From positions 1 to 50,679 of IMG/VR virus record IMGVR_UViG_3300032218_003909: DNA of 50,679 nt, one strand, 5' to 3'. This stretch comes from a virus. Lineage: Duplodnaviria > Caudoviricetes. The position numbers and the translations under genes are program-made. The notes beneath the pieces are model-generated. The model made no database searches. It worked only from the letters and a program-made list of their open reading frames with translations, and was not told the DNA's origin. Shown piece by piece: positions 34,790 to 50,679 of the stretch; within the stretch, counting starts at the first letter, position 1, and each line of letters begins with the position of its first letter.

Positions 34790-35080
34790 TCAAGTTCAAA
34801 GATTGGGCACATAAAATCTGCTTTCCAACTGTGGACCATTGACAATGTGAACGTCTTCACATATATAGTCTTATGCTGCTTTATTGTTGCACATCTTAAC
34901 TTTCAACAACAGCATAAGATTTTCCCGGCATAGCTAATACTTTTTAGACTTTAAAATCTCTAGAACGCCTCGGAAGTATCCGATACTATTTTTTTAGGGC
35001 GCAATGATGTGATTGTCTGTACTCGTACTACCACTAGTAGCAAATGTCTGCCTTGGACTGTGCCCAATCTCTGAATTTAA
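34790..35080 (-). ncRNA. Unknown ~290-nt structured RNA
   Basis: Terminal 17-bp stem UUCAGAGAUUGGGCACA/UGUGCCCAAUCUUUGAA (one G-U pair on the minus strand) encloses several internal helices. No plausible ORF. Confidence 0.7.
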
Positions 35081-35113
35081 ATTTTTGCATATATTGTATG
35101 TATTTGCAATAGT

Positions 35114-35383
35114 CTATAATGCCAAAAGAAACGCAGTGAGTTCAGTTTCTTGCATAAATCCAATATACAAACACCAACTAATATTAGGTCTTTTATTAGA
35201 GTTTCTTGGTGAGAATGTTACGTAATGATCATTTTTATTGGGCCATTCTCTGCCATATAATTTTTCCAATCTTTTTTTTGCAGTGAGGGCTTCTTTGCTC
35301 CACATATCTTCAAAATATATAGCTTTGCTAATTCCATGATTTTTGCGTAGGTTAAATCGTAGATCTAGTTCTTTTACTTTCAC
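35114..35383 (-). CDS. Hypothetical protein
   Basis: 89-aa ORF, GTG start with AGGAG upstream. Confidence 0.65.
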   Translation of the reverse strand: MKVKELDLRFNLRKNHGISKAIYFEDMWSKEALTAKKRLEKLYGREWPNKNDHYVTFSPRNSNKRPNISWCLYIGFMQETELTAFLLAL

Positions 35384-35384
35384 G

Positions 35385-36284: not shown

Positions 36285-36294
36285 GTATATTTCC

Positions 36295-36501
36295 TCAGAG
36301 TTGTGCTTCTGATAAATCCCGTTTGCGATCTGCTTCGATTTCAGCCTGAGCTTCTTTCAGTGTCTTGCCAGTGGTGCCCACATAGTAGACACCGTCTTTT
36401 AGATACGCAAATCGCCACACGCCTTCTCGAAGTCCGTCATAATACGCATTAATATAACCCATCGGAGTTTCATTGTTTGTCACGCAGGCTTTCTCCTTCA
36501 T
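36295..36501 (-). CDS. Hypothetical protein
   Basis: Small ORF in the operon; the true start may be GTG at 36483. Confidence 0.6.
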   Translation of the reverse strand: MKEKACVTNNETPMGYINAYYDGLREGVWRFAYLKDGVYYVGTTGKTLKEAQAEIEADRKRDLSEAQL

Positions 36502-37042
36502 GATGAGATTTAATTGAACCTTTCATAGCATCTGCAATCATATCACGCATCAGCGTAACAACTTTGCCAGTGGCATCTACACCCACATCACGCACACGAT
36601 ATTTTTCAAGTCCACTAGAATTGCCGTGACGATGACCGTGAAAATGTACTGAACCTCGAGCACACTCTTCGTGATCGAGAATAGGATAGTGAAACATCAC
36701 TACCTTGGTGCCTTCAAATCCAATAGTCAAATACTGATGTATCTCAGCAAAGCAAGCGCGATATGCTTCATTCTTCAATGCTTTTCTATCGTGATTGCCT
36801 TCAATCAAAATCTTCTTGCCTTGCAGGCGATTCACTGTTTCAATTAGCTTTTCTAAAGTCATGAAACCTACATCACCGAGGATGTAAACCGTGTCATTTT
36901 CATCAACCTGACTATTCCATTCAGCAATCATACTTTCAGTCATATGCTGTCCGTCGCGATATTGACCACGAGTCTTGGGGCAATACTTGATGATATTGGA
37001 ATGTCCGAGATGTAGATCCGATGCGATCCATGTGCTAGACAT
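36470..37042 (-). CDS. Calcineurin-like metallophosphoesterase
   Basis: SDLH, LGD, GNHD, H.P, HGHRH, DVGVD. Confidence 0.9.
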   Translation of the reverse strand: MSSTWIASDLHLGHSNIIKYCPKTRGQYRDGQHMTESMIAEWNSQVDENDTVYILGDVGFMTLEKLIETVNRLQGKKILIEGNHDRKALKNEAYRACFAEIHQYLTIGFEGTKVVMFHYPILDHEECARGSVHFHGHRHGNSSGLEKYRVRDVGVDATGKVVTLMRDMIADAMKGSIKSHHEGESLRDKQ

Positions 37043-37051
37043 TGTATATCC

Positions 37052-37246
37052 TTACTTGATGACGGTGATGGCGTAGCGAACACCGTCGATGTACTGGTTG
37101 ACGCTCTCGCCTTCCAGGTGAAGGACCGCCGACAGGTTCAGCATGTCCTTGAGGATGGTGGCGTCCTCCTGGCTGAAGCAACGACCCAGGGCCTGGGGCG
37201 TGGTGTTCATCGAGAAATCGTCGCCAATAGCAACTTGCAGCTTCAT
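37052..37246 (-). CDS. Small early hypothetical protein
   Basis: 64 aa, TAAGGAGA RBS, GC-rich codons. Confidence 0.75.
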   Translation of the reverse strand: MKLQVAIGDDFSMNTTPQALGRCFSQEDATILKDMLNLSAVLHLEGESVNQYIDGVRYAITVIK

Positions 37247-37256
37247 GATGTTCTCC

Positions 37257-37355
37257 TTAGATGCGGTTGGTCAGAAAACAGAACAGCGCATACAGGTTCG
37301 TAGCGATGAGACCAATGATACAGGTAACCATATAAACGCTGCCGAAAGTTTCCAT
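37257..37355 (-). CDS. 32-aa single-transmembrane peptide
   Basis: METFGSVYMVTCIIGLIATNLYALFCFLTNRI; AAAGGA RBS; own promoter. Confidence 0.65.
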   Translation of the reverse strand: METFGSVYMVTCIIGLIATNLYALFCFLTNRI

Positions 37356-37384
37356 GATGTAGTTCCTTTGTTTAATGTAGAGTA

Positions 37385-37413
37385 ATCTTATACTTTATGC
37401 GAATTAATGTACA
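37385..37413 (-). promoter_or_regulatory. Early promoter
   Basis: (G)TGTACA-N17-TAAGAT. Confidence 0.6.
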
Positions 37414-37421
37414 CAGGCCTC

Positions 37422-37634
37422 CTAGTCCGGAAGGACGGTACAAGAAACTTTCACCAGGGTGTAGGTGTTAGTAGGCGCCGTCTTGCGGTGCTCTGCAAGT
37501 TCCTTGACCGCCTTGGCGTATGACTTGATGTCCGGTCCGTGGGTAAACGTTCCGTAGGTGGAATTCTTACCAATGATGCGGTACTCGACCATCTTGTCAG
37601 CCATCTTCTGAGTGATACCCTTGCTCACATTCAT
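37422..37634 (-). CDS. Small early hypothetical protein
   Basis: 70 aa, GGGAG RBS, directly behind promoter repeat copy 1. Confidence 0.7.
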   Translation of the reverse strand: MNVSKGITQKMADKMVEYRIIGKNSTYGTFTHGPDIKSYAKAVKELAEHRKTAPTNTYTLVKVSCTVLPD

Positions 37635-37656
37635 CTCCCGTTTAACTCAACTGTGC

Positions 37657-37732
37657 AGATAGTATAGCAAAACGGTCAGATATTGTCAACCGTTTTTGAA
37701 AAAATATTTTGTTCTTATAAATCAATCACTTA
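37657..37732 (-). repeat. Promoter-module direct repeat, copy 1
   Basis: Near-identical to 37901-37978. TTGACA-N17-TATACT, AAAACGGT/ACCGTTTT inverted repeat, IHF-consensus box at 37720-37732. Confidence 0.9.
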
Positions 37733-37875
37733 CGATTCTGTTTAGGGACAAAGCGGCAGCTCGGAGTTTTACGCAAAAAATCAAGCATAGCGCCGTCCTT
37801 AAACAGTCTCGCCATCTGTATGGCAGTCTTTTTGATGTACAAGGTCTTGATTCCGTTGACTGTGGTGTACTTCAT
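37726..37875 (-). CDS. Small basic early protein (49 aa)
   Basis: MKYTTVNGIKTLYIKKTAIQMARLFKDGAMLDFLRKTPSCRFVPKQNRK, between the two promoter repeats. Confidence 0.6.
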   Translation of the reverse strand: MKYTTVNGIKTLYIKKTAIQMARLFKDGAMLDFLRKTPSCRFVPKQNRK

Positions 37876-37900
37876 ATCAGTGTTTCTCTATTCAGTATAG

Positions 37901-37978
37901 AGATAGTATAGCAAAACGGTCAGATATTTGTCAACCGTTTTTGAAAAAAATATTTTGTTCTTATAAATCAATCACTTA
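37901..37978 (-). repeat. Promoter-module direct repeat, copy 2
   Basis: TTGACA-N18-TATACT; differs from copy 1 by two single-base insertions; IHF-consensus box at 37966-37978. Confidence 0.9.
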
Positions 37979-38494
37979 GCGACGCTTTTGCTCTTGGACT
38001 GGTCGAGTTTTGCCTGAGCCGGATGGAATCTGTTGGAAATTAGCAGGATCTTGAATATTACCTAATTGCTTAGCCATGCTTTTTTGTCTGTTTCTATTCT
38101 GCGTATCGCCTGTTCCCAGTGTGTGATGATTGAAGACGCCAAACAAATAAAACTTTCTAGGATTTTTACCCTCGAAACGATAAACCAATGATTCATCAGC
38201 GGACAAATGCGCTTTTCGTAAATCAGGGATTTGTTTGGTGTAATGCAGGCCGCTCAAAAAAGCTTTGTCATTAGAACCAAAAGACGCATCATATTTTTGC
38301 TGCTTCAGATCCATGAACTGTCTAATCTTGTCATGCAATCCTGGAAATTGCGCAATCGTTTCATCGTATATCGGGCTTTTAAAAAACACTGTATCGTTAA
38401 CTGATCCAGCATTTTCCATTAAGCTCCACGAATCTGCTTCGTGGATTGCTAGAATCTGTTCTAGCACTGTTTCTGTGAATTCTCTGAGTCTCAT
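37976..38494 (-). CDS. Putative RelE/YafQ-fold ribonuclease-like protein
   Basis: LRKAHLSADESLVYR...LFGVFNHH.L resembles YafQ R.CH...D.LLIY...GSH; N-terminal MRLREFTE. Confidence 0.55.
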   Translation of the reverse strand: MRLREFTETVLEQILAIHEADSWSLMENAGSVNDTVFFKSPIYDETIAQFPGLHDKIRQFMDLKQQKYDASFGSNDKAFLSGLHYTKQIPDLRKAHLSADESLVYRFEGKNPRKFYLFGVFNHHTLGTGDTQNRNRQKSMAKQLGNIQDPANFQQIPSGSGKTRPVQEQKRR

Positions 38495-38504
38495 TCACTG
38501 AATC

Positions 38505-39176
38505 TCATATTAACCCCCAAGACAATGGATCAGTGAGTACCAGTTGAACGCCGGTGGAAGTCCGACGAAACATAATGTTCTGATCATGAATATCTTGGTC
38601 AAAATAAGGAGTTAGTCTGTGTATCAAGATAGCAGCTTTTTGAAAGTTGGAATCTGTGATTTCAATTGTTTTGTTTCTGACTTTTACTTTTGTTTTAAGA
38701 GGATTTTGAATAAAAACATCAACTATATCAATCAAATCTTTTTTTTTGAATTTTTCACGTTCAAGCTGAGTTTGAGTTATTTTTTCCAGTACAGATATTA
38801 CTTCTTCAGTATTGAGATTTTGATAAGAATACAATTTTTCCATTGTAACTTCTAAATATCGTTTATTATTTTTTGTTTGAAATGCTTTGACATTGTATAT
38901 CTGCGGCAGATATGGATTCATTTTAGCTTGTTTAGCAAGACGACGTATTGCATCGATATATGCAAAATAACCGTCACTGTTCCATTTGTTATCACCTAAC
39001 TTACTAATTTTTTTGACTTTTTCAACATCACCGGGTTCAATAAATACACTACCAAAAGCGCCATGACCTAGTTCTACAGCGCCAGGTTTAGCCAATTGTT
39101 GTTTCTTTGCAGAATCAATTCCTATACCCGAACGGACTGTTAGATCACTGGCTTCTGTTATATCTGAAATTCTCAT
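38505..39176 (-). CDS. Protein-kinase-like enzyme
   Basis: LGHGAFGSVF, V.K, MEKL, DIHDQNIM, LTDP; TATAAATA at 39184-39191. Confidence 0.8.
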   Translation of the reverse strand: MRISDITEASDLTVRSGIGIDSAKKQQLAKPGAVELGHGAFGSVFIEPGDVEKVKKISKLGDNKWNSDGYFAYIDAIRRLAKQAKMNPYLPQIYNVKAFQTKNNKRYLEVTMEKLYSYQNLNTEEVISVLEKITQTQLEREKFKKKDLIDIVDVFIQNPLKTKVKVRNKTIEITDSNFQKAAILIHRLTPYFDQDIHDQNIMFRRTSTGVQLVLTDPLSWGLI

Positions 39177-39209
39177 GATTGTGTATTTATAACATAATGC
39201 GAGATTGTA

Positions 39210-39286
39210 TGGAGGAAGAGGTGGGTTTCGAACCGACGGATCCGTTAGGATCGCTGTTTGTCAAGACCAGAGCCATCAGCCACTCT
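39210..39286 (-). pseudogene. 5'-truncated, decayed tRNA-Ser(TGA)
   Basis: D-loop, CT-TGA-CA loop, long variable arm GATCC-TAAC-GGATC, TTCGAAA and CTCTTCC-T-CCA are present. The 5' acceptor strand is absent and stems have mismatches. Confidence 0.75.
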
Positions 39287-39289
39287 TAC

Positions 39290-39658
39290 TTATATATGCA
39301 GCAAACCTCGAGTTATTTCATTGATACTATAACTACGTGGCTGAAATAGATCTCGCATGAACTTCAGTGTTTTCTTAGGATCACAATCACCACACATGAA
39401 TACATCAATCGCAGCGTAGCCATACTCAGGCCATGTGTGAATACTCATATGACTCTCAGCTAACATAACCACGCCAGTGATACCGTTGCCCGGACCAAAA
39501 TGATGCCACTGATGATTCAACACCGTAGCACCAGCATACTCTGCTGCTGCGACAAACTGTTCTTCAATCTTGTCCAGATCTCCCAGTACTTCGGAACCTA
39601 TTTCAGTCCATAAATCCAATATCAAGTGGCGTCCACAGTAACGTATCGTATCAGGCAT
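39290..39658 (-). CDS. speD: S-adenosylmethionine decarboxylase proenzyme
   Basis: G.HLILD, GITG...LAESH.SIHTWPE.GYAAIDVF.CG. Confidence 0.95.
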   Translation of the reverse strand: MPDTIRYCGRHLILDLWTEIGSEVLGDLDKIEEQFVAAAEYAGATVLNHQWHHFGPGNGITGVVMLAESHMSIHTWPEYGYAAIDVFMCGDCDPKKTLKFMRDLFQPRSYSINEITRGLLHI

Positions 39659-39661
39659 AAT

Positions 39662-40024
39662 TTATTCTCTTTGTTGACTATCACCAGGGCGGATGCGGTA
39701 GTTATCTTCTACACTGTCCGGAGTACTAACCTCAATAATGGTGCCTTCCTCTATACAAAATACCTGATGTGGCAACAATGGCGGATTATGCCAGGTGCTG
39801 CCTGCGTTTAATATTTCTTCATGTTCAGAAGAATCTTTTGTATCAATCCATACTACTCGAAACATGCCATCAAGCACGTACCAGCTTTCGTCTTTTTCAC
39901 TGTGAAAATGCATGCTAAAACATGCACCTTTAGTGAACTTCATCATTTTTCCACAATATCGATCATTAGTAGCCCAGATTAATTCATGACCCCAGCCTTT
40001 TTTTACGAATCCTTCTAATCTCAT
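39662..40024 (-). CDS. Cupin (mannose-6-P isomerase-like)
   Basis: K.WG.E, SMHFH..KDE.WY, P...H, EVST. Confidence 0.85.
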   Translation of the reverse strand: MRLEGFVKKGWGHELIWATNDRYCGKMMKFTKGACFSMHFHSEKDESWYVLDGMFRVVWIDTKDSSEHEEILNAGSTWHNPPLLPHQVFCIEEGTIIEVSTPDSVEDNYRIRPGDSQQRE

Positions 40025-40752
40025 CTTATCTCTTCTAATGTTGGTGCGTATACGCCGACATGTTGAACTGTAACTGCTGAAGCTCGTATTGCAAAAGGTA
40101 TAGCTGTATAAATATCGCGATTCAACAGATAGTCATATGCTAATGCAGACAAAAACGTATCGCCTGCGCCAGTCACATCCACAATTTCAATTTCTTCTGC
40201 TGGCCATGTACTGTTCATATATCGTGCACCTTGATCGCCACTGGTCACGATCAATTCAGATGGGTAGCTTTTAGCTGCACGAAATTCTTTCGCATTGATT
40301 TTAACAATACATCCCTCAAGTCGGGACAGATCTGTTTTTTTCGTATCCACAAATATAGGACCAGCATATACTTGTCGTAATTGTTCAATCAAACCGTAAC
40401 TGACTGTGCCTTTATCATAATCAGAAATCACGATTGCTTCAAAATCCAGCGGCAGCAATTCTTCTATTTTTAATGATTCTGAAATATAATCTTCGTCAAC
40501 TCGCACAATATGCTGTCCACTGCGTTGGTCTATCAAGCGAGTTTTACGACTTGTTCCCTGACTGACAAACTTAACATAGACACCCAATGCTTCTAAATTA
40601 ATCTTGACATTAGCTGCCATACCCGGTCTGCTTTCCTCTTCTAGATAGCGAAACACTGGCACCGGTGCTTCTGGACTGATTCGATCTACAACACCATATC
40701 GATAGATATCAATACAGTTATCACCTATCAGTAATATGTTTAGTTTTTTCAT
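40021..40752 (-). CDS. rfaE: Heptose-7-phosphate kinase (HldE/RfaE kinase domain, PfkB)
   Basis: RISPEAPVPV, G.AANV..NL, SDYDKG, DVTGAGDT. Confidence 0.9.
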   Translation of the reverse strand: MKKLNILLIGDNCIDIYRYGVVDRISPEAPVPVFRYLEEESRPGMAANVKINLEALGVYVKFVSQGTSRKTRLIDQRSGQHIVRVDEDYISESLKIEELLPLDFEAIVISDYDKGTVSYGLIEQLRQVYAGPIFVDTKKTDLSRLEGCIVKINAKEFRAAKSYPSELIVTSGDQGARYMNSTWPAEEIEIVDVTGAGDTFLSALAYDYLLNRDIYTAIPFAIRASAVTVQHVGVYAPTLEEIR

Positions 40753-40796
40753 AGTACTATATATTCTTTTTTACCAATGTGTGAAATAAAAGCAGA

Positions 40797-41195
40797 TTAT
40801 GGTTTAGATTTTTGAGATAACTCTACATATCCCTGATATGTAGGATGAACTTTATCTTTTGATAAGTGTTCTATCTTCAAAACAGTATCTTGATTTTCAT
40901 AGGCTATATATTCAACAATGTCTTGGATTTGTAGTTTTATTGCAGGCAATATCCAGAATACTTTATTCGCGGAAATCTTGTTTCTGAGATTGGATAGTTC
41001 TACTTCAGTGTTAATACCTGATAGATCGTTTGAACCTAAACTGATTATTACAATATCAGACGGTTCAATTCTCTGCCCCCATCTGAGGTTCCAAGCATGA
41101 CTATTGATTCCACTTTTGACATAAGCAACGCATTCAGTACGTATTTGACTTATGCCGTACGCAATACTATCACCAAGAATAAGACACTCTAACAT
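40797..41195 (-). CDS. SGNH/GDSL hydrolase-like protein
   Basis: GDS, SLGSND, D.VHP...GY. Confidence 0.8.
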   Translation of the reverse strand: MLECLILGDSIAYGISQIRTECVAYVKSGINSHAWNLRWGQRIEPSDIVIISLGSNDLSGINTEVELSNLRNKISANKVFWILPAIKLQIQDIVEYIAYENQDTVLKIEHLSKDKVHPTYQGYVELSQKSKP

Positions 41196-41204
41196 ATCTT
41201 ACCT

Positions 41205-41345
41205 TTATACCAGCCATTGGTACATTGCTGTGCAAGTTCCGAGGCTAGGATTTTTTATTAGTCCTGAATCCATATATGTGTCATCAACATTGTTGGTCTT
41301 ATGTAATCCTATATAGATCTTGTCATTATAAATTGTATAGTGCAT
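41205..41345 (-). pseudogene. Remnant of a Seg-type GIY-YIG homing endonuclease
   Basis: MHYTIY-NDKIYIGLHKTNNVDDTYMDSG, 46 aa; internally deleted relative to the IY..TN..N.K.YIG.H....D.YMGSG pattern. Confidence 0.65.
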
Positions 41346-41398
41346 AAAAAGCTTCTACAATTACTTATAAGGTTCAAGTCTTGACTAAAATTTAAATG

Positions 41399-41470
41399 CC
41401 CGGCGTGCAGGAGTCGAACCTACATTCTGGGAGTAGAAATCCCATGTCCTATCCGTTGGACGAACGCCAG
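41399..41470 (-). tRNA. tRNA-Arg(TCT)
   Basis: CTGGCGT/ACGCCGG-G; TGGGA-TT-TCT-AC-TCCCA; no CCA. Confidence 0.9.
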
Positions 41471-41475
41471 AATCT

Positions 41476-41649
41476 TTATCGACCGACCTTTTCCAGAGCT
41501 TCCTTACGCATAAGGAAACGTCGAGGACTGTCAAGTTCATGTACAAAATAATATTCAACGCCATCAATGTATTTGGTGTCTTTCTTTACATCATCACAGA
41601 CGACTTGATCGCCAGTGAATCGATTACGAAACTTAGTTGGGTTTAGCAT
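41476..41649 (-). CDS. Small hypothetical protein (57 aa)
   Basis: MLNPTKFRNRFTGDQVVCDDVKKDTKYIDGVEYYFVHELDSPRRFLMRKEALEKVGR; AAGGAGA RBS. Confidence 0.8.
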   Translation of the reverse strand: MLNPTKFRNRFTGDQVVCDDVKKDTKYIDGVEYYFVHELDSPRRFLMRKEALEKVGR

Positions 41650-41733
41650 TGTTGTTCTCCTTTATTTAAAATGGTGTTTTCTGCTCAGCAATTATCCGAT
41701 TAGTCATAACCAATGTAATCTATGAAACAATAA

Positions 41734-41807
41734 TGGCAGGGTTATCTGGTTACGATCCAGATCCGAGAGTTTCAAAGACTCTAGTGCTACCAGTACACCA
41801 TAACCCT
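41734..41807 (-). tRNA. tRNA-Gln(TTG)
   Basis: AGGGTTA/TAACCCT-G-CCA; CT-TTG-AA; T-loop ATCGTAA. Confidence 0.9.
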
Positions 41808-41834
41808 ATATTCTTATATTGTAACTTTACTAAA

Positions 41835-41911
41835 TGGTCGGAGTAGCCAGATTCGAACTGACGACCCTCTGGTCCCAAACCAGATGCTCTACCAAACTGA
41901 GCTACACTCCG
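41835..41911 (-). tRNA. tRNA-Pro(TGG)
   Basis: Canonical cloverleaf, TT-TGG-GA, CCA. Confidence 0.95.
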
Positions 41912-41917
41912 AATAAA

Positions 41918-41993
41918 TGGTGGGTCGTGAGAGACTTGAACTCTCGACCACAGGATTAAAAGTCCCGTGCTCTACCAACTGAGCTAACGACCC
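41918..41993 (-). tRNA. tRNA-Lys(TTT)
   Basis: Canonical cloverleaf, CT-TTT-AA, CCA. Confidence 0.95.
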
Positions 41994-41998
41994 GTAAT

Positions 41999-42088
41999 TG
42001 GTGGATCCTGAAGGAGTTGAACCTAACTGCCAGCCGCCCTACATGTTTATGGCAACGGTTTTACAGACCGTCGTAGGGAACAGGATCC
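41999..42088 (-). ncRNA. tRNA-like RNA (GTA/Tyr anticodon) lacking a D-arm
   Basis: 8-bp acceptor GGATCCTG/CAGGATCC-A-CCA; anticodon arm GACGGT-CTGTAAA-ACCGTT; CCCTAC/GTAGGG pseudoknot; T-loop TTCAACT. Confidence 0.8.
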
Positions 42089-42111
42089 AATATCTATTTT
42101 TCTCAAAAAAT

Positions 42112-42201
42112 TGGCGGAATGACTGGGACTCGAACCCAGAAGACGAATCACTTCGTCCGACGGTTTAGCAAACCGCTCCAATACCATTATGGGACCATTC
42201 C
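42112..42201 (-). tRNA. tRNA-Ser(GCT)
   Basis: TT-GCT-AA, long variable arm GACGAA-GTGA-TTCGTC, G-CCA. Confidence 0.95.
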
Positions 42202-42206
42202 AATTT

Positions 42207-42282
42207 TGGGGTGTCATATGAGGATTGAACTCATGCTTCTGCAGTCACAACACAGTGTGCAAACCACTACACCAACAACACC
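42207..42282 (-). tRNA. tRNA-His(GTG)
   Basis: G-1:C73, TT-GTG-AC, CCA. Confidence 0.9.
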
Positions 42283-42288
42283 ATCGTT

Positions 42289-42331
42289 TGGCCTGGGAGC
42301 AAGGAATCGAACTCTCAATTCCGTGTTACAG
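42289..42331 (-). pseudogene. tRNA 3'-half fragment
   Basis: GAGAG-TTCGATT-CCTTG-CTCCCAG-G-CCA with no 5' half; abuts the CCA of tRNA-Leu. Confidence 0.7.
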
Positions 42332-42332
42332 C

Positions 42333-42409
42333 TGGTACGAGTGGTGGGATTCGAACCCACACTTTAGGGATTTTAAGTCCCTTATCTCTACCGATTGGAT
42401 TACACTCGC
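42333..42409 (-). tRNA. tRNA-Leu(TAA), short variable loop
   Basis: AGGGA-CT-TAA-AA-TCCCT, A-CCA, 77 nt. Confidence 0.92.
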
Positions 42410-42466
42410 ATTATACATGCTACCCACTGGTCAGGTAGTTATTTTTTTAACAATGATTTTTAAATA

Positions 42467-43162
42467 TCAACACATATTCCATTTTACCAAAAGCGGATCC
42501 TCTAACCCTAGTTCTGCGAAGCACTTGATTCTGAGCAAGCATGGATCACAATGACCACATGGCTGACCTGAGTCTGCAGGATCGTAGCAACTGCTGGTGT
42601 TGCTGTAGTCCATGCCCAGTGCGTTCCCGGTGCGAATAATATCTGTTTTTGTCATGTTCATCAATGGTGTGTGAATCTTTAATCTTTCACCTTCAAATCC
42701 AGCTCTGGTAGCCAGATTAGCCATGTTTTCATATGCTGCAATATATTCTGGGCGACAATCTGGGTATCGTGTCATGCCTTCAGGAGCATTGACACCAATG
42801 AAAATATCATTTGCATTTAATGTTTCTGCCCATGCCACAGCAAAACTCAAAAATACCGTGTTGCGGGCCGGCACATATGTCACTGGAATCACACTGACCA
42901 AATCAGGTGCCAGTTCATTTTTGGGCACTTCAATATCACTGGTCAGTGCAGATCCGCCGAATGCTCTTAAATCAATCTTTTGAATCACATGCTGTTCAAC
43001 ATTTGCTTGCTGAGCTAATGCGCGGGCACAATTTAATTCATGAGCGTGTCGTTGCCCGTAATCAAAACTCAGTGCGTACACTCGAAAATCCTGTGATGCC
43101 AAAGCCAGCATTGTTGCTGAGTCTAGTCCACCACTTAATAAGACTACTGCTGCGTTTTTCAT
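42467..43162 (-). CDS. queC: 7-cyano-7-deazaguanine synthase
   Basis: SGGLDS, YGQRH..E, TYVPARN, YPDCR, SCY, CGHCDPC. Confidence 0.95.
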
Positions 43163-43176
43163 AATTTTCCTTGTAT

Positions 43177-43250
43177 TGGTGGCTCCAACGAGAATCGAAC
43201 TCGTAACTATCAGATATCAGCCGATTATTATACCATTTAACTACAGAGCA
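43177..43250 (-). tRNA. tRNA-Ile(GAT)
   Basis: ATCGG-CT-GAT-AT-CTGAT, TTCGATT, A-CCA; 1:72 mismatch. Confidence 0.85.
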
Positions 43251-43259
43251 ATTATAATA

Positions 43260-43348
43260 GATCTCCTAGTGCATGGTCAAGCGGAAAGTTGACCATGAGA
43301 CTGTAGACGCATTCCTACGCCTTCCGTGTCAGATTCATCTAGGAGATC
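43260..43348 (-). ncRNA. Unknown ~89-nt pseudoknotted RNA
   Basis: 10-bp closing stem, 9-bp hairpin CATGGTCAA/TTGACCATG, 7-bp loop-bulge pairing. Confidence 0.65.
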
Positions 43349-43354
43349 AAATCA

Positions 43355-43473
43355 ATAAAACATAGTATCCTGGGCATAAGATACTATGTTTTATAGACTT
43401 TACAAGATTCAAAAATCATAAACTAGTATCTAGGTGTATTTCATACTGAGTCGTCCAAGATACTAGGCTATGA
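43355..43473 (-). ncRNA. Two long hairpins sharing a TAGTATC/GATACTA core
   Basis: 15-bp perfect stem at 43355-43394; interrupted stem at 43416-43473. Confidence 0.55.
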
Positions 43474-43482
43474 AAAATTCTT

Positions 43483-43596
43483 CTGGGTTTTTACCACCAT
43501 TGCTGGCTTATCATCCCCCAGGCCGCCCACATTTGCGAGTTTTTATAGTGCTTCGCAGGATCGCGTTCCCTATTTGCACTTTCAGATACTATAAAC
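43483..43596 (-). ncRNA. Unknown pseudoknot plus GNRA-hairpin RNA
   Basis: AGTGC/GCACT, AGGG/TCCT, pseudoknot TGCGA/TCGCA via an A-rich linker; CTGGG/CCCAG encloses GCCA-GCAA-TGGT. Confidence 0.55.
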
Positions 43597-43597
43597 T

Positions 43598-43628
43598 AAA
43601 AACCCCAGGGTGTCTAGTCCTGGGGTTT
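43598..43628 (-). terminator. Intrinsic terminator (putative attenuator)
   Basis: AAACCCCAGG/CCTGGGGTTT stem with TTTTTAGTTT tail, ~160 nt after the promoter and ahead of the tRNA array. Confidence 0.85.
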
Positions 43629-43656
43629 CGATTCGGTATAATCTGTTGATTATATT

Positions 43657-43764
43657 CTAATCGAAACTGCCTCCTGGTTCACTAATATATAATGAACCAG
43701 GTTGACCCAACCAGGCTAATCCTAGTTCAATTTTTTTAACGATATGTTCATTTATTTGTTTCAT
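43657..43764 (-). CDS. Putative 35-aa leader peptide
   Basis: MKQINEHIVKKIELGLAWLGQPGSLYISEPGGSFD with AGGA RBS, between promoter and terminator. Confidence 0.6.
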   Translation of the reverse strand: MKQINEHIVKKIELGLAWLGQPGSLYISEPGGSFD

Positions 43765-43786
43765 GAATTTATTTATCCTATCGTAA

Positions 43787-43814
43787 ATTATACATGTTTT
43801 TTTGAGTTTGTCAA
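43787..43814 (-). promoter_or_regulatory. Sigma70 promoter of the tRNA operon
   Basis: TTGACA-N16-TATAAT; GATAAATA late-like box just downstream. Confidence 0.8.
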
Positions 43815-43849
43815 TCTTGAGCTTTGCCGTTTTTCTAGATAAATATCTG

Positions 43850-44851
43850 ATGCGATATCATGAAATTTTACCTGAAACCTCGGATATTCTGACTCTTAAC
43901 CCTGGCGAAACTAGGCCTGCTCCAATAGCTGCTCGACCAGAGGACCAAAATAAAGCACTGGATTTAGTAAGTCAAATCACAGACCTCAAGCAAGAACTAA
44001 AAAATCTAGCCAGACTGAGGGATGAGATGTATTACAAAACTGATAAATGGTTACGTGATAATCAATATCGTTATGAATCAGACACTGTAAAAAATTTTCA
44101 AAAAGAAATTGATGATATCTCAGCCAAGCATATAGCAACTTCCGATAAAATAGATTCACTATCTAAAGACTACACTTTTTTAATAAAAGGCTATGATGAT
44201 TCTGATGCTGGTGCACTAAGAGCTTACGAGCATCTTAAAAAACACTGCAGCGATTTCTTGAATAACTCCGCTCAGGCACAAAAACTGCTTTATCGCGGCC
44301 TTCAGAATTATCCTAGTTCATTCAGAGGTTTTTCTTTTATCGGTAGATCGTGGGATAAACGACACACCAAAGATACTCCCCGTCAGACACACGAAAAATT
44401 AAGTGCAGTAATGCGAGAAAATGGTTTTACTGCTACACGAGAAAACAGTATCATGTGCACATCTTCATATCCAACTGCTGAAGAATATGGTGAAGTTTAT
44501 ATGATATTTCCTATAAATGGATTCTCTTTTACTTGGAGTAGAACCTACGCTGACATGTTTACTGATTTATTTGATAAGCTTCCGTACTACCCTGCATACA
44601 GTGGCCACTGGAGTGCATTAATGAATCATTTTGATGATACCTACGGAGGAGCCCAAGGCGATGAACAACAAAAGCGCAGCATTGAGTCTAATTTTATCAA
44701 AAATGAATTGAAATTAAATCGCACTGACTTTCATGCAGCATTGCTGTCAGGGCATGAGATATATATTCACGGTCAATACTATGCGTTACACTTACGTGCT
44801 TATTGGCAATTAAATCAGCTACTCAAATCAAACTTTGGTGTAGGATATTGA
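43850..44851 (+). CDS. ADP-ribosyltransferase-like paralog 1
   Basis: LYRG...SIMCTSS...A..YG...HEIYI; ATG at 43850 after GATAAATA; N-terminal coiled coil. Confidence 0.6.
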   Translation: MRYHEILPETSDILTLNPGETRPAPIAARPEDQNKALDLVSQITDLKQELKNLARLRDEMYYKTDKWLRDNQYRYESDTVKNFQKEIDDISAKHIATSDKIDSLSKDYTFLIKGYDDSDAGALRAYEHLKKHCSDFLNNSAQAQKLLYRGLQNYPSSFRGFSFIGRSWDKRHTKDTPRQTHEKLSAVMRENGFTATRENSIMCTSSYPTAEEYGEVYMIFPINGFSFTWSRTYADMFTDLFDKLPYYPAYSGHWSALMNHFDDTYGGAQGDEQQKRSIESNFIKNELKLNRTDFHAALLSGHEIYIHGQYYALHLRAYWQLNQLLKSNFGVGY

Positions 44852-44855
44852 TTGT

Positions 44856-45761
44856 TTAATTCCGTCCTCTGATCAGATCAATTAAAGGCCGATAATAATC
44901 ATAAGAAAATGCGTAATATTTTCCCTTGATGTATATTTCATGCTCAGATTTCAATGCTTGTTCAAGATTTTTATCATCGAATTGTGCGTATTCTATAAAT
45001 GCTTTTTCAATATTTTCAGTTCCAGGTTGTAGCCTAGAAATAAGCTCTTTAAACGACGCAACAGTTTGGGCTGGCGTCATAGATAAAAGACTAGCCCATA
45101 AATCCTTGTACTTATGACTCCACGTATATTTAAATCCGTCAAAAGGCACTATGATGTATGTGTTTTTAGATACACCTGAGGCATAATAATAAGCCATACC
45201 TAAATCACTGGTACACATGATACTGTTTCCACGAGTCGCAGAAAAGCCGTTTGATTTCAGTGCATTATTTACAAATTTATGTATTTCTGGTACTGTATCT
45301 GTTGGATGACGCTTTGCATGTGCAGTGCCGATAAAAGCAGAACTTCTGTGAGGGTTTAAAAAATTTGAAGATCCACGATATAAACAACCGCCATATGCAC
45401 GAGTAACTGATAAAAATTCACCGCAAGTTTTAGTCAACTCGGTATATATGCGATTTGTGCAAGCATTGGCTAGTTCTTGGAAATCTTGTTGAAGATATCT
45501 TAAACGATTTTCTTTTTCCAAAATTTGTGAGTTAAGTTCTTGAATTTTTGTACCATGATCTGCGACTTGACTGGCATTTTGTGTAACATAATCTAACGTA
45601 GTTCGTGCTTTTGATATGTCTTGAGTGATCGTTTGACATTCTTGTTCAATTTGTTTTGCTTGATTTTGGACACTACGTGGTACACTAGCTATGTCTAAAA
45701 TAAAAGGTACTTTCTCACCTGGTTTTAGTTGATTTTCAGATAAAAATTCTTGAAGACGCAT
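44856..45761 (-). CDS. ADP-ribosyltransferase-like paralog 2
   Basis: LYRG...SIMCTSD...A..Y...EHEIYI; GATAAATA four nt before the ATG. Confidence 0.6.
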   Translation of the reverse strand: MRLQEFLSENQLKPGEKVPFILDIASVPRSVQNQAKQIEQECQTITQDISKARTTLDYVTQNASQVADHGTKIQELNSQILEKENRLRYLQQDFQELANACTNRIYTELTKTCGEFLSVTRAYGGCLYRGSSNFLNPHRSSAFIGTAHAKRHPTDTVPEIHKFVNNALKSNGFSATRGNSIMCTSDLGMAYYYASGVSKNTYIIVPFDGFKYTWSHKYKDLWASLLSMTPAQTVASFKELISRLQPGTENIEKAFIEYAQFDDKNLEQALKSEHEIYIKGKYYAFSYDYYRPLIDLIRGRN

Positions 45762-45829
45762 GCAGTATTTATCAGATCAGTTTTTTTAACCAATAAGCTA
45801 GTTTAATCCAGGCAGATATTGAATGTTAA

Positions 45830-46594
45830 CTAAAGATATTTTGCCAATGTCGTCTGGACTTTAGCCATGTCTGCACAGGTATAAGCCTGATAACTGGCTT
45901 TGAGTTTTTCAGGCATTGGTATTTTCACAATAGGCACACGGAAACCTTGCGCTACTTCCAGGAAACTTTTTGTACTGCCTGTGCCAATATTCCAAATACC
46001 ACTTTCAGGTATATTCAAAAACTTTTTATGTAGATCTATCACAGTGCTGACAGGCACAAAATCTCGATGATAATTCTCACTGCCTTCGAATACTCGTATT
46101 TCTCCCACCCTCTCAGCCTGCAATCTAAACTGTGTAAACGGACTGGCTTGAGTTCCCTTGTGTTCTTCATTTGAGCCATATACGTTAAAATAACGGAACC
46201 CTTGAACAACAATATGTTCAAAACATTTTTTTTGAGCATATCTTTCAAACATATATTTGCTCCAGGCATACGGTGTTCGTGGATCAGGCGCAGTATTTTC
46301 ATTAAAATCTTGACCTAGCCCGTATATACTAGCTGAACTTGAATATTGTAGGTTTACTTTGTGTCTAATACATTCATCTAAAATCCAACAACTGAAATCA
46401 TAGTTTTGGCGCATGATTTTGTTTACATCATGCTCAGTTGTAGAACTGATGGCACCTATGTGAATTACCCAATCTAAGCCTTGAATGTTGGGCACCTTCT
46501 CTCCCCATTCATAAGTGCTGACTTCATGTTCTGATAAAGCAGTCAACATGTGACTACCGATAAAACCTTTATAACCTGTGAGAAGTATTTTCAT
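45830..46594 (-). CDS. hldD: ADP-L-glycero-D-manno-heptose 6-epimerase
   Basis: TG..GFIG, H.GAISSTTE, YSSSAS.YG, YAWSK, RYFNVYG..E.HKG..AS, YQ..TCAD. Confidence 0.9.
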   Translation of the reverse strand: MKILLTGYKGFIGSHMLTALSEHEVSTYEWGEKVPNIQGLDWVIHIGAISSTTEHDVNKIMRQNYDFSCWILDECIRHKVNLQYSSSASIYGLGQDFNENTAPDPRTPYAWSKYMFERYAQKKCFEHIVVQGFRYFNVYGSNEEHKGTQASPFTQFRLQAERVGEIRVFEGSENYHRDFVPVSTVIDLHKKFLNIPESGIWNIGTGSTKSFLEVAQGFRVPIVKIPMPEKLKASYQAYTCADMAKVQTTLAKYL

Positions 46595-46667
46595 AATTTT
46601 AGTGCTATTTGTGCACGGTATTTAACATAAATACCAGATATTATTATAACTTTTTACGGAAACCAGC

Positions 46668-47717
46668 ATGCAAATCAATGAAATAATAAGCCGAGAATTG
46701 TCACGAGCAGCATCTAAACAAAAAATTGAGGTCGGTGGGTTCTTAAACAAACACCTACTCGTCAGAACAATAAAACAAGACTGCAGTGATTTTTTGTCTA
46801 AAGCCAAAGGCACAGCTGGTGTTTTTCGTGGTATTGCAGATTATGCAGGATTCCCAGAGGCATATCAATCTCAATCACGCACTAGAAATGCCAGAGATAC
46901 GTCGCAAGAAATACAAAAAAAATTCGATGAACTGTTGATTTCCCAGGGCTTTTCTGCTGTTCGAGGCAACAGTATATTTGTGTCCGGCAGTTTGCCGATG
47001 GCAATTGGTTACGGAGAACCATATTTTATCATACCTAAAAATGGTTTTACGTTCACTTGGAGTCCTGAGATAAAAGATTTTTACACAGGTGGATTAGCTT
47101 TGAATAACAAAAGTTGGGCAGGATTTGTTAGTAAATGGTCTATTTCGCCTGACCACAACCAATTGATTCACAAGATCAAAAATATTATTGACCCACTAAT
47201 TACTGATGTTAATGCAATATGGTCAGCAACAGTTAATCGAAATTCAGAACCAGTTCTTGGTGTCAATTGGAATCAAGAATTTGGAAAACGATGGGCAATG
47301 GACAGCCAGTGGATCGAATCGATTTCACGGATACTCGACTTTATTCGAGAGTCTTTGAAAAGTCCAGATTTAATCTGGATTTTCAATGATTATGGTGGAA
47401 AACAATTAAGACAAAAACTAGAAAATAGTGTAAATCATTTTGAAGCTATCAAAAACATTTTTGCACCAAGAAAAGACTATCAAGAACTTTTAAATTTATT
47501 GTCAAATCAAGTATCATTTAATACACCGGCTTCTGAAATAAATACACCAGAACAAGCACAACGTATTATACAAAATTTAGAAATGAAAAATAATATCGAT
47601 TTACATTCTGCGATATTATCTGAAAATGAGATACTGATAAATGGTTCGTATTACGCATTCGACTATCATAAGTATCAAGATTTGCATGATAAATTATTTG
47701 CAGTCAAACCAGGGTGA
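46668..47717 (+). CDS. ADP-ribosyltransferase-like paralog 3
   Basis: VFRG...SIFVSGS...A.GYG...ENEILI. Confidence 0.6.
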   Translation: MQINEIISRELSRAASKQKIEVGGFLNKHLLVRTIKQDCSDFLSKAKGTAGVFRGIADYAGFPEAYQSQSRTRNARDTSQEIQKKFDELLISQGFSAVRGNSIFVSGSLPMAIGYGEPYFIIPKNGFTFTWSPEIKDFYTGGLALNNKSWAGFVSKWSISPDHNQLIHKIKNIIDPLITDVNAIWSATVNRNSEPVLGVNWNQEFGKRWAMDSQWIESISRILDFIRESLKSPDLIWIFNDYGGKQLRQKLENSVNHFEAIKNIFAPRKDYQELLNLLSNQVSFNTPASEINTPEQAQRIIQNLEMKNNIDLHSAILSENEILINGSYYAFDYHKYQDLHDKLFAVKPG

Positions 47718-47732
47718 TCAGGAAAATAACAT

Positions 47733-48857
47733 ATGCCAGCTAAAAAAACCAATGTATTGAAGCCAGGTGATAGATCACCAATTAATATTGATATGCTAAA
47801 TATCGATCCTGCTTTATTAAGCAAAGCTGCTGAATTAAAAGCTAGAATAGCTGAAATATATAAAGAATTGAATCGACTTGAAAAAGAAAAAAACAAACAA
47901 GTAAAGCAATCTGAAAAAACTCAGCAAGAAATCAATAAAGCGTCATTTTCTAATTATGCTAAAATAATACAAAAGGACTGTTCAGAGTATATACAAGCAG
48001 TTGCTGCTGCTAAAAAAGTTTTATTCAGAGGTATAGATCCAGGTTGGAATCGTCCTTTGGCAGCATATGTGGGTCGAAGTCATAAGAAAAGAGAAACCAA
48101 AGATACAGGGTCAGAAATACAGACAGGCGTTGATAAAATATTAGCAAGCAAAGGATTTACTGCTCTCAGACACAACAGTATATTCACTTCAAGTGATTTA
48201 AACACAGCGTCGGGCTACGGAATACCATTCATAATATTTCCAAAAAATGGCTTTAGTTTTACGTGGAGTCCTAAGATTGCCGATTTTTATCAAGAAATGG
48301 TACAGGACGAAGAAATTTATGATTGGTCAGAATTTGTTAATATACATGGTGCTAGCACTTTAGACTATACAATTTTAAATATGTTTCCACGTGTAGGCTA
48401 TTATCTTGGAATATTTGAAGTTAGTCTTGAAAAGCATCCAAAACTCAAGAGTTTATACCTTTCTATTAAAAATCTCAATGAAAACATCGACGAGATGCTC
48501 GGGGACATCGACTATGATTATCCTGTCATCAACGGAGCAGATATAAATCGTTATATTTCTCAGGTGATGGAAATTATTCGAGCATTGGAAACGGAACCTA
48601 AAATCCAGGATATTCTAAAAAGTAAACCTGAATTAGCAAAAGATTTTAAAAAAATGAAGAGTGAAGTTGGTGAGTTTACAGCTGAATGGCAGAAAAATAA
48701 AAATTTAAACAGATCTGACATTATATTTCAGAAACTCGGATACACTAACCAAAATCTCGTGGCTGCATTAAAATCAGATCATGAAGTCATGATCAATGGC
48801 GAATATTATGCATTGGAATATAGTATATACAAAAATATACTAAAATACTTTAAATAA
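47733..48857 (+). CDS. ADP-ribosyltransferase-like paralog 4
   Basis: LFRG...SIFTSS...A.GYG...DHEVMI. Confidence 0.6.
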   Translation: MPAKKTNVLKPGDRSPINIDMLNIDPALLSKAAELKARIAEIYKELNRLEKEKNKQVKQSEKTQQEINKASFSNYAKIIQKDCSEYIQAVAAAKKVLFRGIDPGWNRPLAAYVGRSHKKRETKDTGSEIQTGVDKILASKGFTALRHNSIFTSSDLNTASGYGIPFIIFPKNGFSFTWSPKIADFYQEMVQDEEIYDWSEFVNIHGASTLDYTILNMFPRVGYYLGIFEVSLEKHPKLKSLYLSIKNLNENIDEMLGDIDYDYPVINGADINRYISQVMEIIRALETEPKIQDILKSKPELAKDFKKMKSEVGEFTAEWQKNKNLNRSDIIFQKLGYTNQNLVAALKSDHEVMINGEYYALEYSIYKNILKYFK

Positions 48858-48876
48858 AATCTTGGAACAATAACAA

Positions 48877-50052
48877 ATGCCACCGAAAAAAACCAATGTA
48901 TTAAAACCAGGCAGTAAATCACCCTTTGAGGTAGATACATCAAACTTGGATCCAGAATTATTAGCTAGGGCAAACACAATAAAGGCTAAGATAGCTGAAA
49001 TTGAAGCTCAGATAGCCAGTCTTCGAGCAGAAGAAAAAAAATCAAAAACAGCTTCCCAAAAAGCTGAAAAAAAGATTGGTGCTCCGTCAATGGTTCGCTA
49101 TGTTGAATTAATACAAAAAGACTGTTCAGAATATGCACAAGCAGTTATAGCAACTGGCAAAGTATTATATCGTGGCAGCGGCAATACAAGCATGCCAGCG
49201 TATGTTGCTCGCAGTCGTAGCAACCGGTCACCAGATAATACACCGTTATCTATCCAGAAAGGTTTTGACAAGTTATTGTCAAGTCAGGGCTTTACTGCTC
49301 TTAGAAAAAACAGTATATTCACTACGAGTAGACAACTACAGGCTGCACGTTACGGAGAACCATACATAATATTTCCAAAAAACGGCTTTAGTTTTACATG
49401 GAGTCCAGAAGTACCAGATTTTTATCGTGGGTTGATAGAGGAACATGAAATACCCACATGGTCTGAATTTGTAAGCCATTATAGCCAAGATACTTCTTCG
49501 ATTTATGTAGATCTAGAGATTCTAAGTGACACTCTTAATTCTATAATCTATGCTCTTCAAGGGATTAGATTTGAATTTCCTATACACCAGAAACAAACTG
49601 AAAAAATCGAGGATGAGATTTACAATCTACAAGAACTGCTAGAGGAAGACCACGAAATCTCACCATATCCAAGTGTAGCGATTAAACAAGCAAATAATTA
49701 TATTAAACGTTTGACAAAAATTATTCAGGGGATAGAAATTTCTCCTGAAATCAAATCTATTTTTTATAAAGATAAAGATGCTAAAGATTATCTAAACAGT
49801 ATAAAGAACTATCAGAATACATTACAGAAAATAAGCAAAGAATTAAAAATTCCAGAATTAGCTGACACTGCAGTACTTCGCAATCTTGCATATACTAACC
49901 AAAATCTTGAAGCAGCATTAAAATCAGACAACGAAGTCATGATCAATGGCGAGTATTATGCGTTCAAATATGATTTATACTATGACATACTAAAATACCT
50001 CCGACAGGATAATAGAAAAAAACCAATGTCTGAAAAGAAATCTAATAAGTAG
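48877..50052 (+). CDS. ADP-ribosyltransferase-like paralog 5
   Basis: LYRG...SIFTTS...A.RYG...DNEVMI; tandem duplicate of paralog 4. Confidence 0.6.
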   Translation: MPPKKTNVLKPGSKSPFEVDTSNLDPELLARANTIKAKIAEIEAQIASLRAEEKKSKTASQKAEKKIGAPSMVRYVELIQKDCSEYAQAVIATGKVLYRGSGNTSMPAYVARSRSNRSPDNTPLSIQKGFDKLLSSQGFTALRKNSIFTTSRQLQAARYGEPYIIFPKNGFSFTWSPEVPDFYRGLIEEHEIPTWSEFVSHYSQDTSSIYVDLEILSDTLNSIIYALQGIRFEFPIHQKQTEKIEDEIYNLQELLEEDHEISPYPSVAIKQANNYIKRLTKIIQGIEISPEIKSIFYKDKDAKDYLNSIKNYQNTLQKISKELKIPELADTAVLRNLAYTNQNLEAALKSDNEVMINGEYYAFKYDLYYDILKYLRQDNRKKPMSEKKSNK

Positions 50053-50058
50053 CTGAGT

Positions 50059-50490
50059 ATGTCAATCATCAAAGCCGGAATAATCCCTTGCATCAAAAAA
50101 GACAAACAACTGTTCATGTTATTCATGAAACCCAGTGACCCTAAGTTTGGCGGTCCTGATTATCAAATTGCCAAAGGTCACATAGACAAAGATGAATCAC
50201 CACTGCAAGCAGCAATTCGTGAAGGGTACGAAGAACTAGGCTTGAAACCTACCAACATAGACCATGTGTGGCCTGTGGGGATTGTGAAAAATACCAAGGT
50301 CTATGCATGTGAGGTTTACAGTATGAAAGACTTTGACCAGCCCGATTATGAAACTGGCAGCACACGATGGATGACACCAAATGAGTTTTTAGAAACTGGT
50401 CGTCACATGCATCGAGGCATCGTCAGAGCAGCAGCCAGAAAATTAAAATTGTTAGAATCGTTTCCTGAACTGCGCACTGTTATTTGGTGA
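50059..50490 (+). CDS. Nudix hydrolase
   Basis: Nudix box KGHIDKDESPLQAAIREGYEELGL. Confidence 0.9.
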   Translation: MSIIKAGIIPCIKKDKQLFMLFMKPSDPKFGGPDYQIAKGHIDKDESPLQAAIREGYEELGLKPTNIDHVWPVGIVKNTKVYACEVYSMKDFDQPDYETGSTRWMTPNEFLETGRHMHRGIVRAAARKLKLLESFPELRTVIW

Positions 50491-50492
50491 TT

Positions 50493-50567
50493 TGGTGGGC
50501 CTTGCCAGACTTGCACTGACAGCCAAATGATTATGAGTCATCTGCTCTACTATTGAGCTAAAGGCCC
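50493..50567 (-). tRNA. tRNA with CAT anticodon (Ile2 or Met)
   Basis: GGGCCTT/AAGGCCC-A-CCA (Ile-like acceptor); CT-CAT-AA; T-loop TGCAAGT. Confidence 0.88.
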
Positions 50568-50573
50568 GAGATT

Positions 50574-50649
50574 TGGTGCTCCGTGATGGATTTGAACCAC
50601 CGACAACCGGAATATAAGTCCGACGTTCTGACCACTGAACTAACGGAGC
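50574..50649 (-). tRNA. tRNA-Ile(TAT)
   Basis: GCTCCGT/ACGGAGC-A-CCA; TCGGA-CT-TAT-AT-TCCGG; TTCAAAT. Confidence 0.92.
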
Positions 50650-50679
50650 GTTGTTTAACTGATGTTGTGCATTATACAG

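Follow-up and report, generated by a model that had tools for sequence, protein, structure and literature searches.

The window, by which we mean the whole stretch of 50,679 nt of viral DNA that was analysed, carries on its minus strand a leader consisting of a promoter, a short upstream open reading frame (uORF), an antiterminator hairpin and an intrinsic terminator, followed by two orphan structured RNAs, a tRNA-Ile gene, a queC-like gene and a cluster of further tRNA genes (Table 1). A preliminary description of this locus had placed the promoter, a 35-codon ORF and the terminator ahead of the tRNAs, and all three elements are indeed found on the minus strand in the positions given for them.

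Table 1. Features of the leader and of the RNA and tRNA genes that follow it
Feature	Position	Strand	Basis or remark
Sigma70-type promoter, TTGACA-16-TATAAT	43787..43814	-	12/12 consensus match
Weak SD-like AGGA	43779-43776	-	sequence
ATAAATA motif	43776-43770	-	sequence
uORF, 35 codons + TAG	43657..43764	-	ATG 43764; TAG 43659-43657
ORF-internal helices	43673..43715	-	CCTGGTT 43715-43709 and 43701-43695; AACCAGG 43679-43673
Antiterminator hairpin	43625..43671	-	GTTTCGATT (43667-43659, last uORF codons) with AATCGAAAC (43633-43625), 9-bp helix; stop codon inside
Intrinsic terminator, 7-bp GC stem, 9-nt loop, T5	43598..43628	-	stem 43625-43619/43609-43603
Candidate internal promoter, TAGACA-17-TATAGT	43588..43616	-	10/12 match
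Orphan structured RNA 1	43480..43583, ends approximate	-	33-sequence alignment; no Rfam match
Two long AU-rich hairpins	43349..43473	-	folding
Orphan structured RNA 2, closing helix and two hairpins	43260..43348	-	no Rfam match
Promoter-like site, TTGACC-18-TATAAT	43251..43280	-	11/12 match
tRNA-Ile(GAT), first tRNA	43177..43250	-	354 nt past terminator stem
queC-like gene, 231 aa	42467..43162	-	phrog_1550, E 6.7e-59
tRNA cluster: Leu(TAA), His(GTG), Ser(GCT), Lys(TTT), Pro(TGG), Gln(TTG), Arg(TCT)	41398..42409	-	seven called tRNAs
Tyr-like element	42089-42002	-	missed by ARAGORN; weak Rfam tRNA-Sec match, E 0.035

The leader promoter is the sole 12/12 match of the 65 sites found in the scanned region 34000-50679. 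The ribosome-binding site that had been described stands in part: an SD-like AGGA is present but has to be called weak, because it lies 11 nt from the ATG. The ATAAATA motif close by resembles T4-type late promoters. The uORF encodes 17 of the 20 amino acids, with no Cys, Arg or Thr, no internal Met and a single Trp at codon 18, and it has no match in PHROGs. Asn, His, Tyr and Asp are each specified by one NAU codon, the queuosine-read family, and a queC-like gene lies downstream; this coincidence is likely due to chance in an AT-rich genome. Two copies of CCUGGUU and one AACCAGG had been noticed in the ORF and are present, the first CCUGGUU spanning Ala-Trp-Leu codons and the second being buried in a 12-bp hairpin unless opened by the ribosome. 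The helix across the stop codon, which had been said to overlap the terminator base, was confirmed as well; it captures AAAC, the base of the terminator 5' arm, and its duplex energy in the window is -12.4 kcal/mol (shuffle p 0.005). The terminator itself was absent from our automated scan because the loop limit of the scan was 8 nt and the loop has 9. A free energy of -61.1 kcal/mol (z = -7.97) is computed for the whole leader, and none of 200 shuffles equalled it. The Rfam search over 43260-43814 gave no match at E<=1, and a riboswitch or T-box identity was rejected, as no Rfam cis-regulatory family matches this region at that threshold. Among the seven terminators detected in the window, no second arrangement of uORF, antiterminator and terminator was flagged. 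Five paralogs of phrog_11975, a family of unassigned function, surround the leader (43802-45761 and 46668-50052), and Atu_ph07 is the only cultured phage in the phage collection with a match to them.

Orphan RNA 1 would be the first element transcribed on read-through, and the alignment of 33 sequences shows two-sided changes at 12 of its 15 predicted pairs. Across the 33 loci it measures about 105-120 nt and has an invariant AACGCG loop, a GGGCGG linker and a strongly covarying 3' domain; the terminal hairpin is shortened in the window copy, one locus (L126) has a second copy within an array without leader, and several family leaders contain an extra small ORF between the terminator and this RNA. 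Both hairpins of orphan RNA 2 show compensatory changes relative to L120 and L121, and inspection by eye indicates a possible loop-junction pseudoknot. L120 and L121 are near-identical phages (QueC 99%) that carry a tRNA set unlike that of the window behind an almost identical leader, with Gly, Ala, Val, Glu and Cys tRNAs in L120 versus His, Pro and Arg in the window, and the leader codons thus do not track the array. The Tyr-like element is probably a tRNA-Tyr with a long variable arm, its anticodon loop reading GTA by eye, and a degenerate tRNA fragment apparently lies at about 42327-42285. Elsewhere in the window, a tRNA-Ile(TAT) (50574-50649, minus strand) adjoins a tRNA-Met, and the contig ends within the region upstream of this tRNA-Ile. 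Two copies of a promoter cassette (TTGACA-17/18-TATACT with TG, about 70 nt) lie about 245 nt from each other at 37970-37660 (minus strand); they precede small genes as well as genes for a phosphoesterase and for an RNA ligase. Matches to RNA ligase and phosphoesterase and weak matches to polynucleotide kinase are found at 35385-37042 (minus strand) and 27553-28650 (plus strand), which suggests an RNA-repair kit consistent with tRNA damage.

A separate promoter downstream of the terminator had been named as the observation that would speak against regulation by the leader, and this objection may apply in part. Two promoter-like sites do lie past the terminator in the window, and 31 of 62 relatives have one between the terminator and the first tRNA. 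The 10/12 site has its -35 element within the terminator loop, and its start would coincide with the beginning of orphan RNA 1; it is conserved in L120 and L121, and three further loci (L128, L137 and L162) have stronger sites, TTGACA-17-TATAGT, that are spaced alike relative to the RNA. The 11/12 site lies in an orphan-RNA hairpin, and as it is missing from the near-identical L120 and L121, it was rejected as a conserved promoter.

The check that had been suggested, a search for uORFs with terminators before tRNAs in related phages, yielded a family of leaders. We used three anchors, namely the RNA 3' of the terminator, which left the leader outside the query, an ORF motif, and hairpin/terminator patterns; a 14-mer scan gave mostly chance matches (7 of 119 loci retained, 5 with the layout). 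A terminator with a uORF was found at 164 of 177 anchors, which reduce to 85 unique leaders and, at less than 85% mutual identity, to 67 non-redundant representatives; 33 of these come from the RNA anchor. The 13 anchors without terminator, 9 of them distinct (L012, L126, L170, L179, L197, L200, L219, L224 and L232), were dropped, and variant loci, among them L122, L130 and L135, escaped the RNA pattern. The 67 leaders are not 67 independent origins, because 58 of the 67 peptides join one cluster at 40% identity. With stops permitted up to 90 nt away, the distance from stop codon to terminator stem is 21-34 nt in all 67 leaders, and the uORF tails are distributed over three frames (32/22/4). 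A promoter-like site of at least 10/12 lies within 150 nt of the uORF start in 64 of 66 relatives, as compared with 5.5% of 365 coding windows, and a [CA]TAAATA motif is found no more than 150 nt upstream of the uORF in 57 of 66 relatives, but in only 1.4% of coding windows. In 16 of 66 leaders the ATG is at the predicted transcription start, and many of the uORFs look leaderless. A same-strand tRNA follows downstream in 63 of the 67. The window leader has the family order of promoter, uORF, antiterminator, terminator, orphan RNA 1 and tRNA, its stem begins 31 nt past the uORF stop, and it shares with the family the type of terminator and the RNA that follows.

Further scans added few loci. 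A genome scan with the hairpin-pair pattern returned six, five of which are GC-rich chance matches; the sixth, L275, is a true leader on a 6.2-kb contig of a Polynucleobacter MAG, with an all-20 leader and a downstream RNA at the contig end, and it may be a weak hint at the host or a mis-binned piece of phage. Among the 126 matches listed from metagenome and viral hairpin scans were a relative that had been recognised already (L297/L410/L412) and a single additional leader, L402; no second copy of the window allele was among these matches. L402 is a distant locus that has the hairpin type of the window and a 40-codon uORF with 16 amino acids before a tRNA-Arg. No match was found by blastn with the window leader region and L132 against 50,697 phage records, and tblastn with the peptide of L138, a typical all-20 leader, gave nothing beyond noise at E 2-9.

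The most conspicuous property of the family is the amino acid content of its uORFs. All 20 amino acids are encoded in 57 of the 67, where 2.2 would be expected from neighbouring-gene windows and 2.4 from pooled uORF codons, and among the RNA-anchored leaders in 26 of 33 (1.1 expected); the other frames reach this content in 0, 3 and 5 of 67 cases. The uORFs cover 23.3 of 25 decoding classes, versus about 19 expected. Shared ancestry does not explain the all-20 content, since a column-shuffle null is far lower (9.8±2.7, with a maximum of 21 in 1000 shuffles, versus 57 observed in the set of 66 from which L225 with its truncated start had been excluded). The sole Cys is found in 17 different alignment columns. 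Between nearest neighbours, single-copy residues had changed at 32 of 290 sites without loss of the amino acid in any case, and redundant sites had changed at 671 of 2055. We infer from these sequence comparisons that there is selection for the presence of each amino acid, which would amount to a general decoding test. The likeness to amino-acid operons that the preliminary description had drawn is not borne out in this respect, as tandem control codons are lacking and the longest run of a control codon does not exceed two in 66 of 67 uORFs; likewise, the codon-specific sensing that it implied is at odds with the all-20 uORFs, which point to a test of the whole code. The AUA, CUA, UUA, GGA and AAA codons to which it drew attention are present, but their special meaning is not supported, as codon use in the family is near background. 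Ala makes up 5.7% of the family uORFs versus 6.0% of the background, and the pN/pS of the uORFs is 0.48-0.62, an estimate that includes bases fixed by the ORF-motif search.

The second family-wide feature is the complementarity between the end of the uORF and the terminator. Between the final 36 nt of the ORF and the terminator 5' arm, the mean duplex energy is -17.3 kcal/mol, as compared with -5.6 kcal/mol when the 36 nt before these are used and -8.2 kcal/mol for shuffles. This duplex reaches p<=0.05 in 65 of 67 leaders and in 32 of the 33 RNA-anchored ones, whereas only 1 of 11 control terminators with an upstream stop, taken from the scanned phage regions, does so. A comparison of cognate and non-cognate duplex energies is uninformative, because most members have one and the same arm sequence. 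On alignment A1 the antiterminator helix is 81.8% paired, and its covariation score of 0.182 exceeds that of shuffled alignments (0.133±0.009; 0 of 500) and of slid registers (<=0.109); one pair is G-C in 36 sequences and A-U in 16. The tree-based covariation test gave p 0.25, from only 4 supported independent pairs. As a feature of the sequence, the antiterminator is real.

How a ribosome on the uORF would affect these structures was modelled in two ways. With the full leader folded at equilibrium, the family median of P(terminator) is 0.16 for RNA free of ribosomes. The median is 0.16-0.55 for A-site positions from 30 to 12 codons ahead of the stop and reaches 1.0 when the A site is anywhere in codons -10 to -2. 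In the nascent-RNA model, in which only the RNA made before the terminator 3' arm is folded, 0.78 of the terminator 5' arm is hidden in the family when no ribosome is present, and a ribosome at codons -10 to -2 lowers this to 0.32-0.40. Once the stop codon occupies the A site, the antiterminator partly re-forms behind the assumed footprint of the ribosome (family median 0.71 hidden; in the window 0.33, and 0.69 at codon -1), and timing therefore matters. The CCUGG-type pairings that had been proposed within the leader fit the window model, in which sequestration of the arm rises from 3.7 to about 6 of its 7 bases with the ribosome at codons ~10-12 or ~20-24, counted as a total over any partner. 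Together, the models predict that a ribosome at the end of the ORF leads to termination, and that a lagging or absent ribosome leads to read-through. The earlier proposal of a ribosome-coupled attenuator that gates the RNA and tRNA cluster is thus favoured by the conserved geometry, by the covariation of the antiterminator and by folding of the family and of nascent RNA, but not by the equilibrium model of the window, which predicts termination wherever the ribosome stands. We consider it probable, at roughly 0.7, that the window leader is a working ribosome-coupled transcription attenuator, a judgement based on comparative sequence data and folding models.

By its architecture the window copy belongs to a class of phage tRNA leaders whose all-20 signature it fails. 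The 17 amino acids of its uORF are what chance would give (P 0.36); L021 also has 17 of 20, and its P(terminator) falls to 0.01-0.17 at some stall sites. An unlikely alternative is that the family attenuates but the window copy has decayed to a near-constitutive terminator, with the tRNAs and queC being expressed from the 43616-43588 site, the 43280-43251 site or both. The shortened uORF with its chance-level amino acid diversity would fit such a decay, as would a P(terminator) of about 1.0 at all ribosome positions in the equilibrium model, an antiterminator that is the weakest of 67, and the 11/12 promoter-like site that is present here and missing in L120 and L121. However, the 12/12 promoter, the open frame, the stop-to-stem spacing and the 9-bp antiterminator are intact and common to L120 and L121, from which the window differs at four positions in the ORF, two of which lengthen the antiterminator of these relatives. 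Switching also persists in the nascent-RNA model of the window. Without a ribosome, 52% of the arm is sequestered, the lowest value of the 67; this rises to 76-86% for ribosomes stalled at several sites further upstream and falls to 2-6% at codons -6 to -2. Furthermore, the distant L402 retains the same type of hairpin with a uORF that likewise lacks the full set of amino acids, and transcripts from the 43280-43251 site would start within tRNA-Ile. The window copy may thus be tighter, narrower or partly bypassed, and its switch more probably boosts a basal output than acts as the sole gate.

The sensing of translation itself could also be construed differently. Arrest peptides such as TnaC, SecM and ErmCL provide one comparison, in which the conserved Trp and an NDRTPE-type motif of the uORF would stall the ribosome on a small ligand and not upon tRNA shortage. 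An in-frame Trp is present in 66 of 67 uORFs, at one alignment column in 57 of 59 single copies, and a DR motif is found in 16 of 33 RNA-anchored leaders; yet DR is missing from the other 17 and from the window, mean column identity is 24%, and a C-terminal arrest sequence conserved in one frame is absent, the tails being in three frames. The Thr and Pro codons of the motif show no variation at the third base (ACA in 14 of 14, CCA in 14 of 14), suggesting a constraint at the RNA level, and a fixed arrest sequence does not predict that all 20 amino acids are kept through turnover, so that we regard an arrest peptide as very unlikely. A leader that senses a few specific tRNAs, matching those encoded by the phage or cleaved by the host, is more doubtful still. 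It would be compatible with the three amino acids missing from the window uORF, with several of its codons being read by cluster tRNAs, and with the Asn/Ala-rich leader of phage RsoM2USA, but codon enrichment is absent, the cluster contains a tRNA-Arg with no Arg codon in the leader, and L120 has a tRNA-Cys and no Cys codon. A match between leader codons and tRNA sets was accordingly rejected, as near-identical leaders precede different sets and codon use is near background. We assign an equally slight chance to the uORF encoding a small protein and having a terminator of its own, at which a phage protein or RNA, and not the ribosome, would set read-through. Phage antitermination proteins are well known, and pN/pS is below 1, but this explanation leaves unaccounted for the all-20 content, the constancy of the stop distance in different frames and the location of an antiterminator arm within the ORF tail.

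A ribosome-coupled attenuator before tRNA genes would have both likeness and contrast to known systems. The classical attenuators of trp, his, thr, leu, ilv and phe share with it a leader peptide and mutually exclusive antiterminator and terminator structures. The window leader lacks their tandem control codons and a matching biosynthetic operon, and in the phage family model the state without ribosome favours read-through, whereas classical leaders terminate without a ribosome. Closer is the whiB7/wblC attenuator of Actinobacteria, which comprises a promoter, a short uORF and a Rho-independent terminator, with efficient translation resulting in termination, and stalling or loss of the start codon in antitermination (PMC10274678). 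According to the same article, uORF composition decides which shortages are sensed, and the uORF of M. smegmatis has all amino acids but Cys; the system is chromosomal and controls a transcription factor, and its uORF is rich in Ala, at 25-40% (PMC10274678). The phage leaders, in contrast, are phage-borne, lie before tRNA and orphan RNA genes, show no Ala enrichment and keep all 20 amino acids. By analogy, the window leader would work like a whiB7-type attenuator, yet it is neither the whiB7 locus nor a classical attenuator. In the trn operon of Anabaena, a long tRNA array is also kept low and induced by translational stress, but through the DNA-binding repressor TrcR, which acts at initiation, and on a megaplasmid; the abstract makes no mention of a uORF/terminator switch (PMC10272220). 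In searches of a mostly open-access literature, we came upon no description of phage tRNA genes being controlled by attenuation, and the passages of one further article contained nothing relevant (PMC11242549).

The layout is testable, because it is present before tRNA genes in two cultured phages, Atu_ph07 and RsoM2USA. In Atu_ph07 (MF403008.1, 339246-339118, minus strand) it lies at the head of the main tRNA block, with a tRNA 125 nt on. The uORF there is a 42-codon annotated CDS (AUZ95228.1) with 18 amino acids, the stop is 31 nt before the stem, the antiterminator has -18.8 kcal/mol, and the modelled P(terminator) rises from 0.02-0.38 upstream to 1.0 near the ORF end. RsoM2USA (MG752970.1, 87361-87248, minus strand) has a 37-codon version with 13 amino acids, 19 nt before a tRNA-Met in the tRNA region, and a scan of XacN1 24000-50500 flagged no such leader. 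Both leaders were located by position and not by sequence similarity to that of the window. The passages of the Atu_ph07 paper voice the codon-bias view of phage tRNAs, and neither 'terminator' nor 'leader' nor 'attenuat' occurs in them (PMC6102473).

In the attenuator model that we favour, slow or absent translation of the uORF would allow more read-through into the orphan RNAs, the tRNAs and queC. Folding suggests that a ribosome on the last ~6-10 codons would cover the 5' arm of the antiterminator and thereby free the 5' arm of the terminator, so that transcription would end near 43598, and that with a lagging ribosome the antiterminator would form first. As translation of a typical family uORF would call for every amino acid and for nearly all decoding classes, any shortage of charged tRNA, be it by starvation, tRNA cleavage or phage-driven decay, could turn the tRNA supply on, and the newly made tRNAs would turn the switch off again. 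The window copy would be a shortened and retuned version, blind to shortage of Cys, Arg and Thr and more tightly off by default, which probably supplements the basal output of an internal promoter and is not the sole gate. The chances are about even, in our view, that large phages run such a self-test of the whole genetic code to gate their tRNA arrays, in which tRNA loss, including that by cleavage in host defence, elicits a self-limiting replacement. The sensor range would then evolve per lineage, the window copy being a retuned case that dropped three amino acids and became tighter, and Atu_ph07 would carry a working switch.

The question why phages have tRNA genes is an old one, and the answers under discussion are codon bias and the replacement of damaged tRNAs. 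A switch of this kind would make it a matter for a reporter experiment, and the cultured Atu_ph07 is a direct test case. If the attenuator model is true, attenuation by uORFs, which is known from metabolic and resistance genes, would also operate on tRNA genes and in viruses, and the leader would be a compact genetic reporter of the health of the tRNA pool. A tRNA output that is conditional on ribosome progress, together with a sensor under selection to include all amino acids, would argue that phages keep their tRNA genes for replacement on demand.
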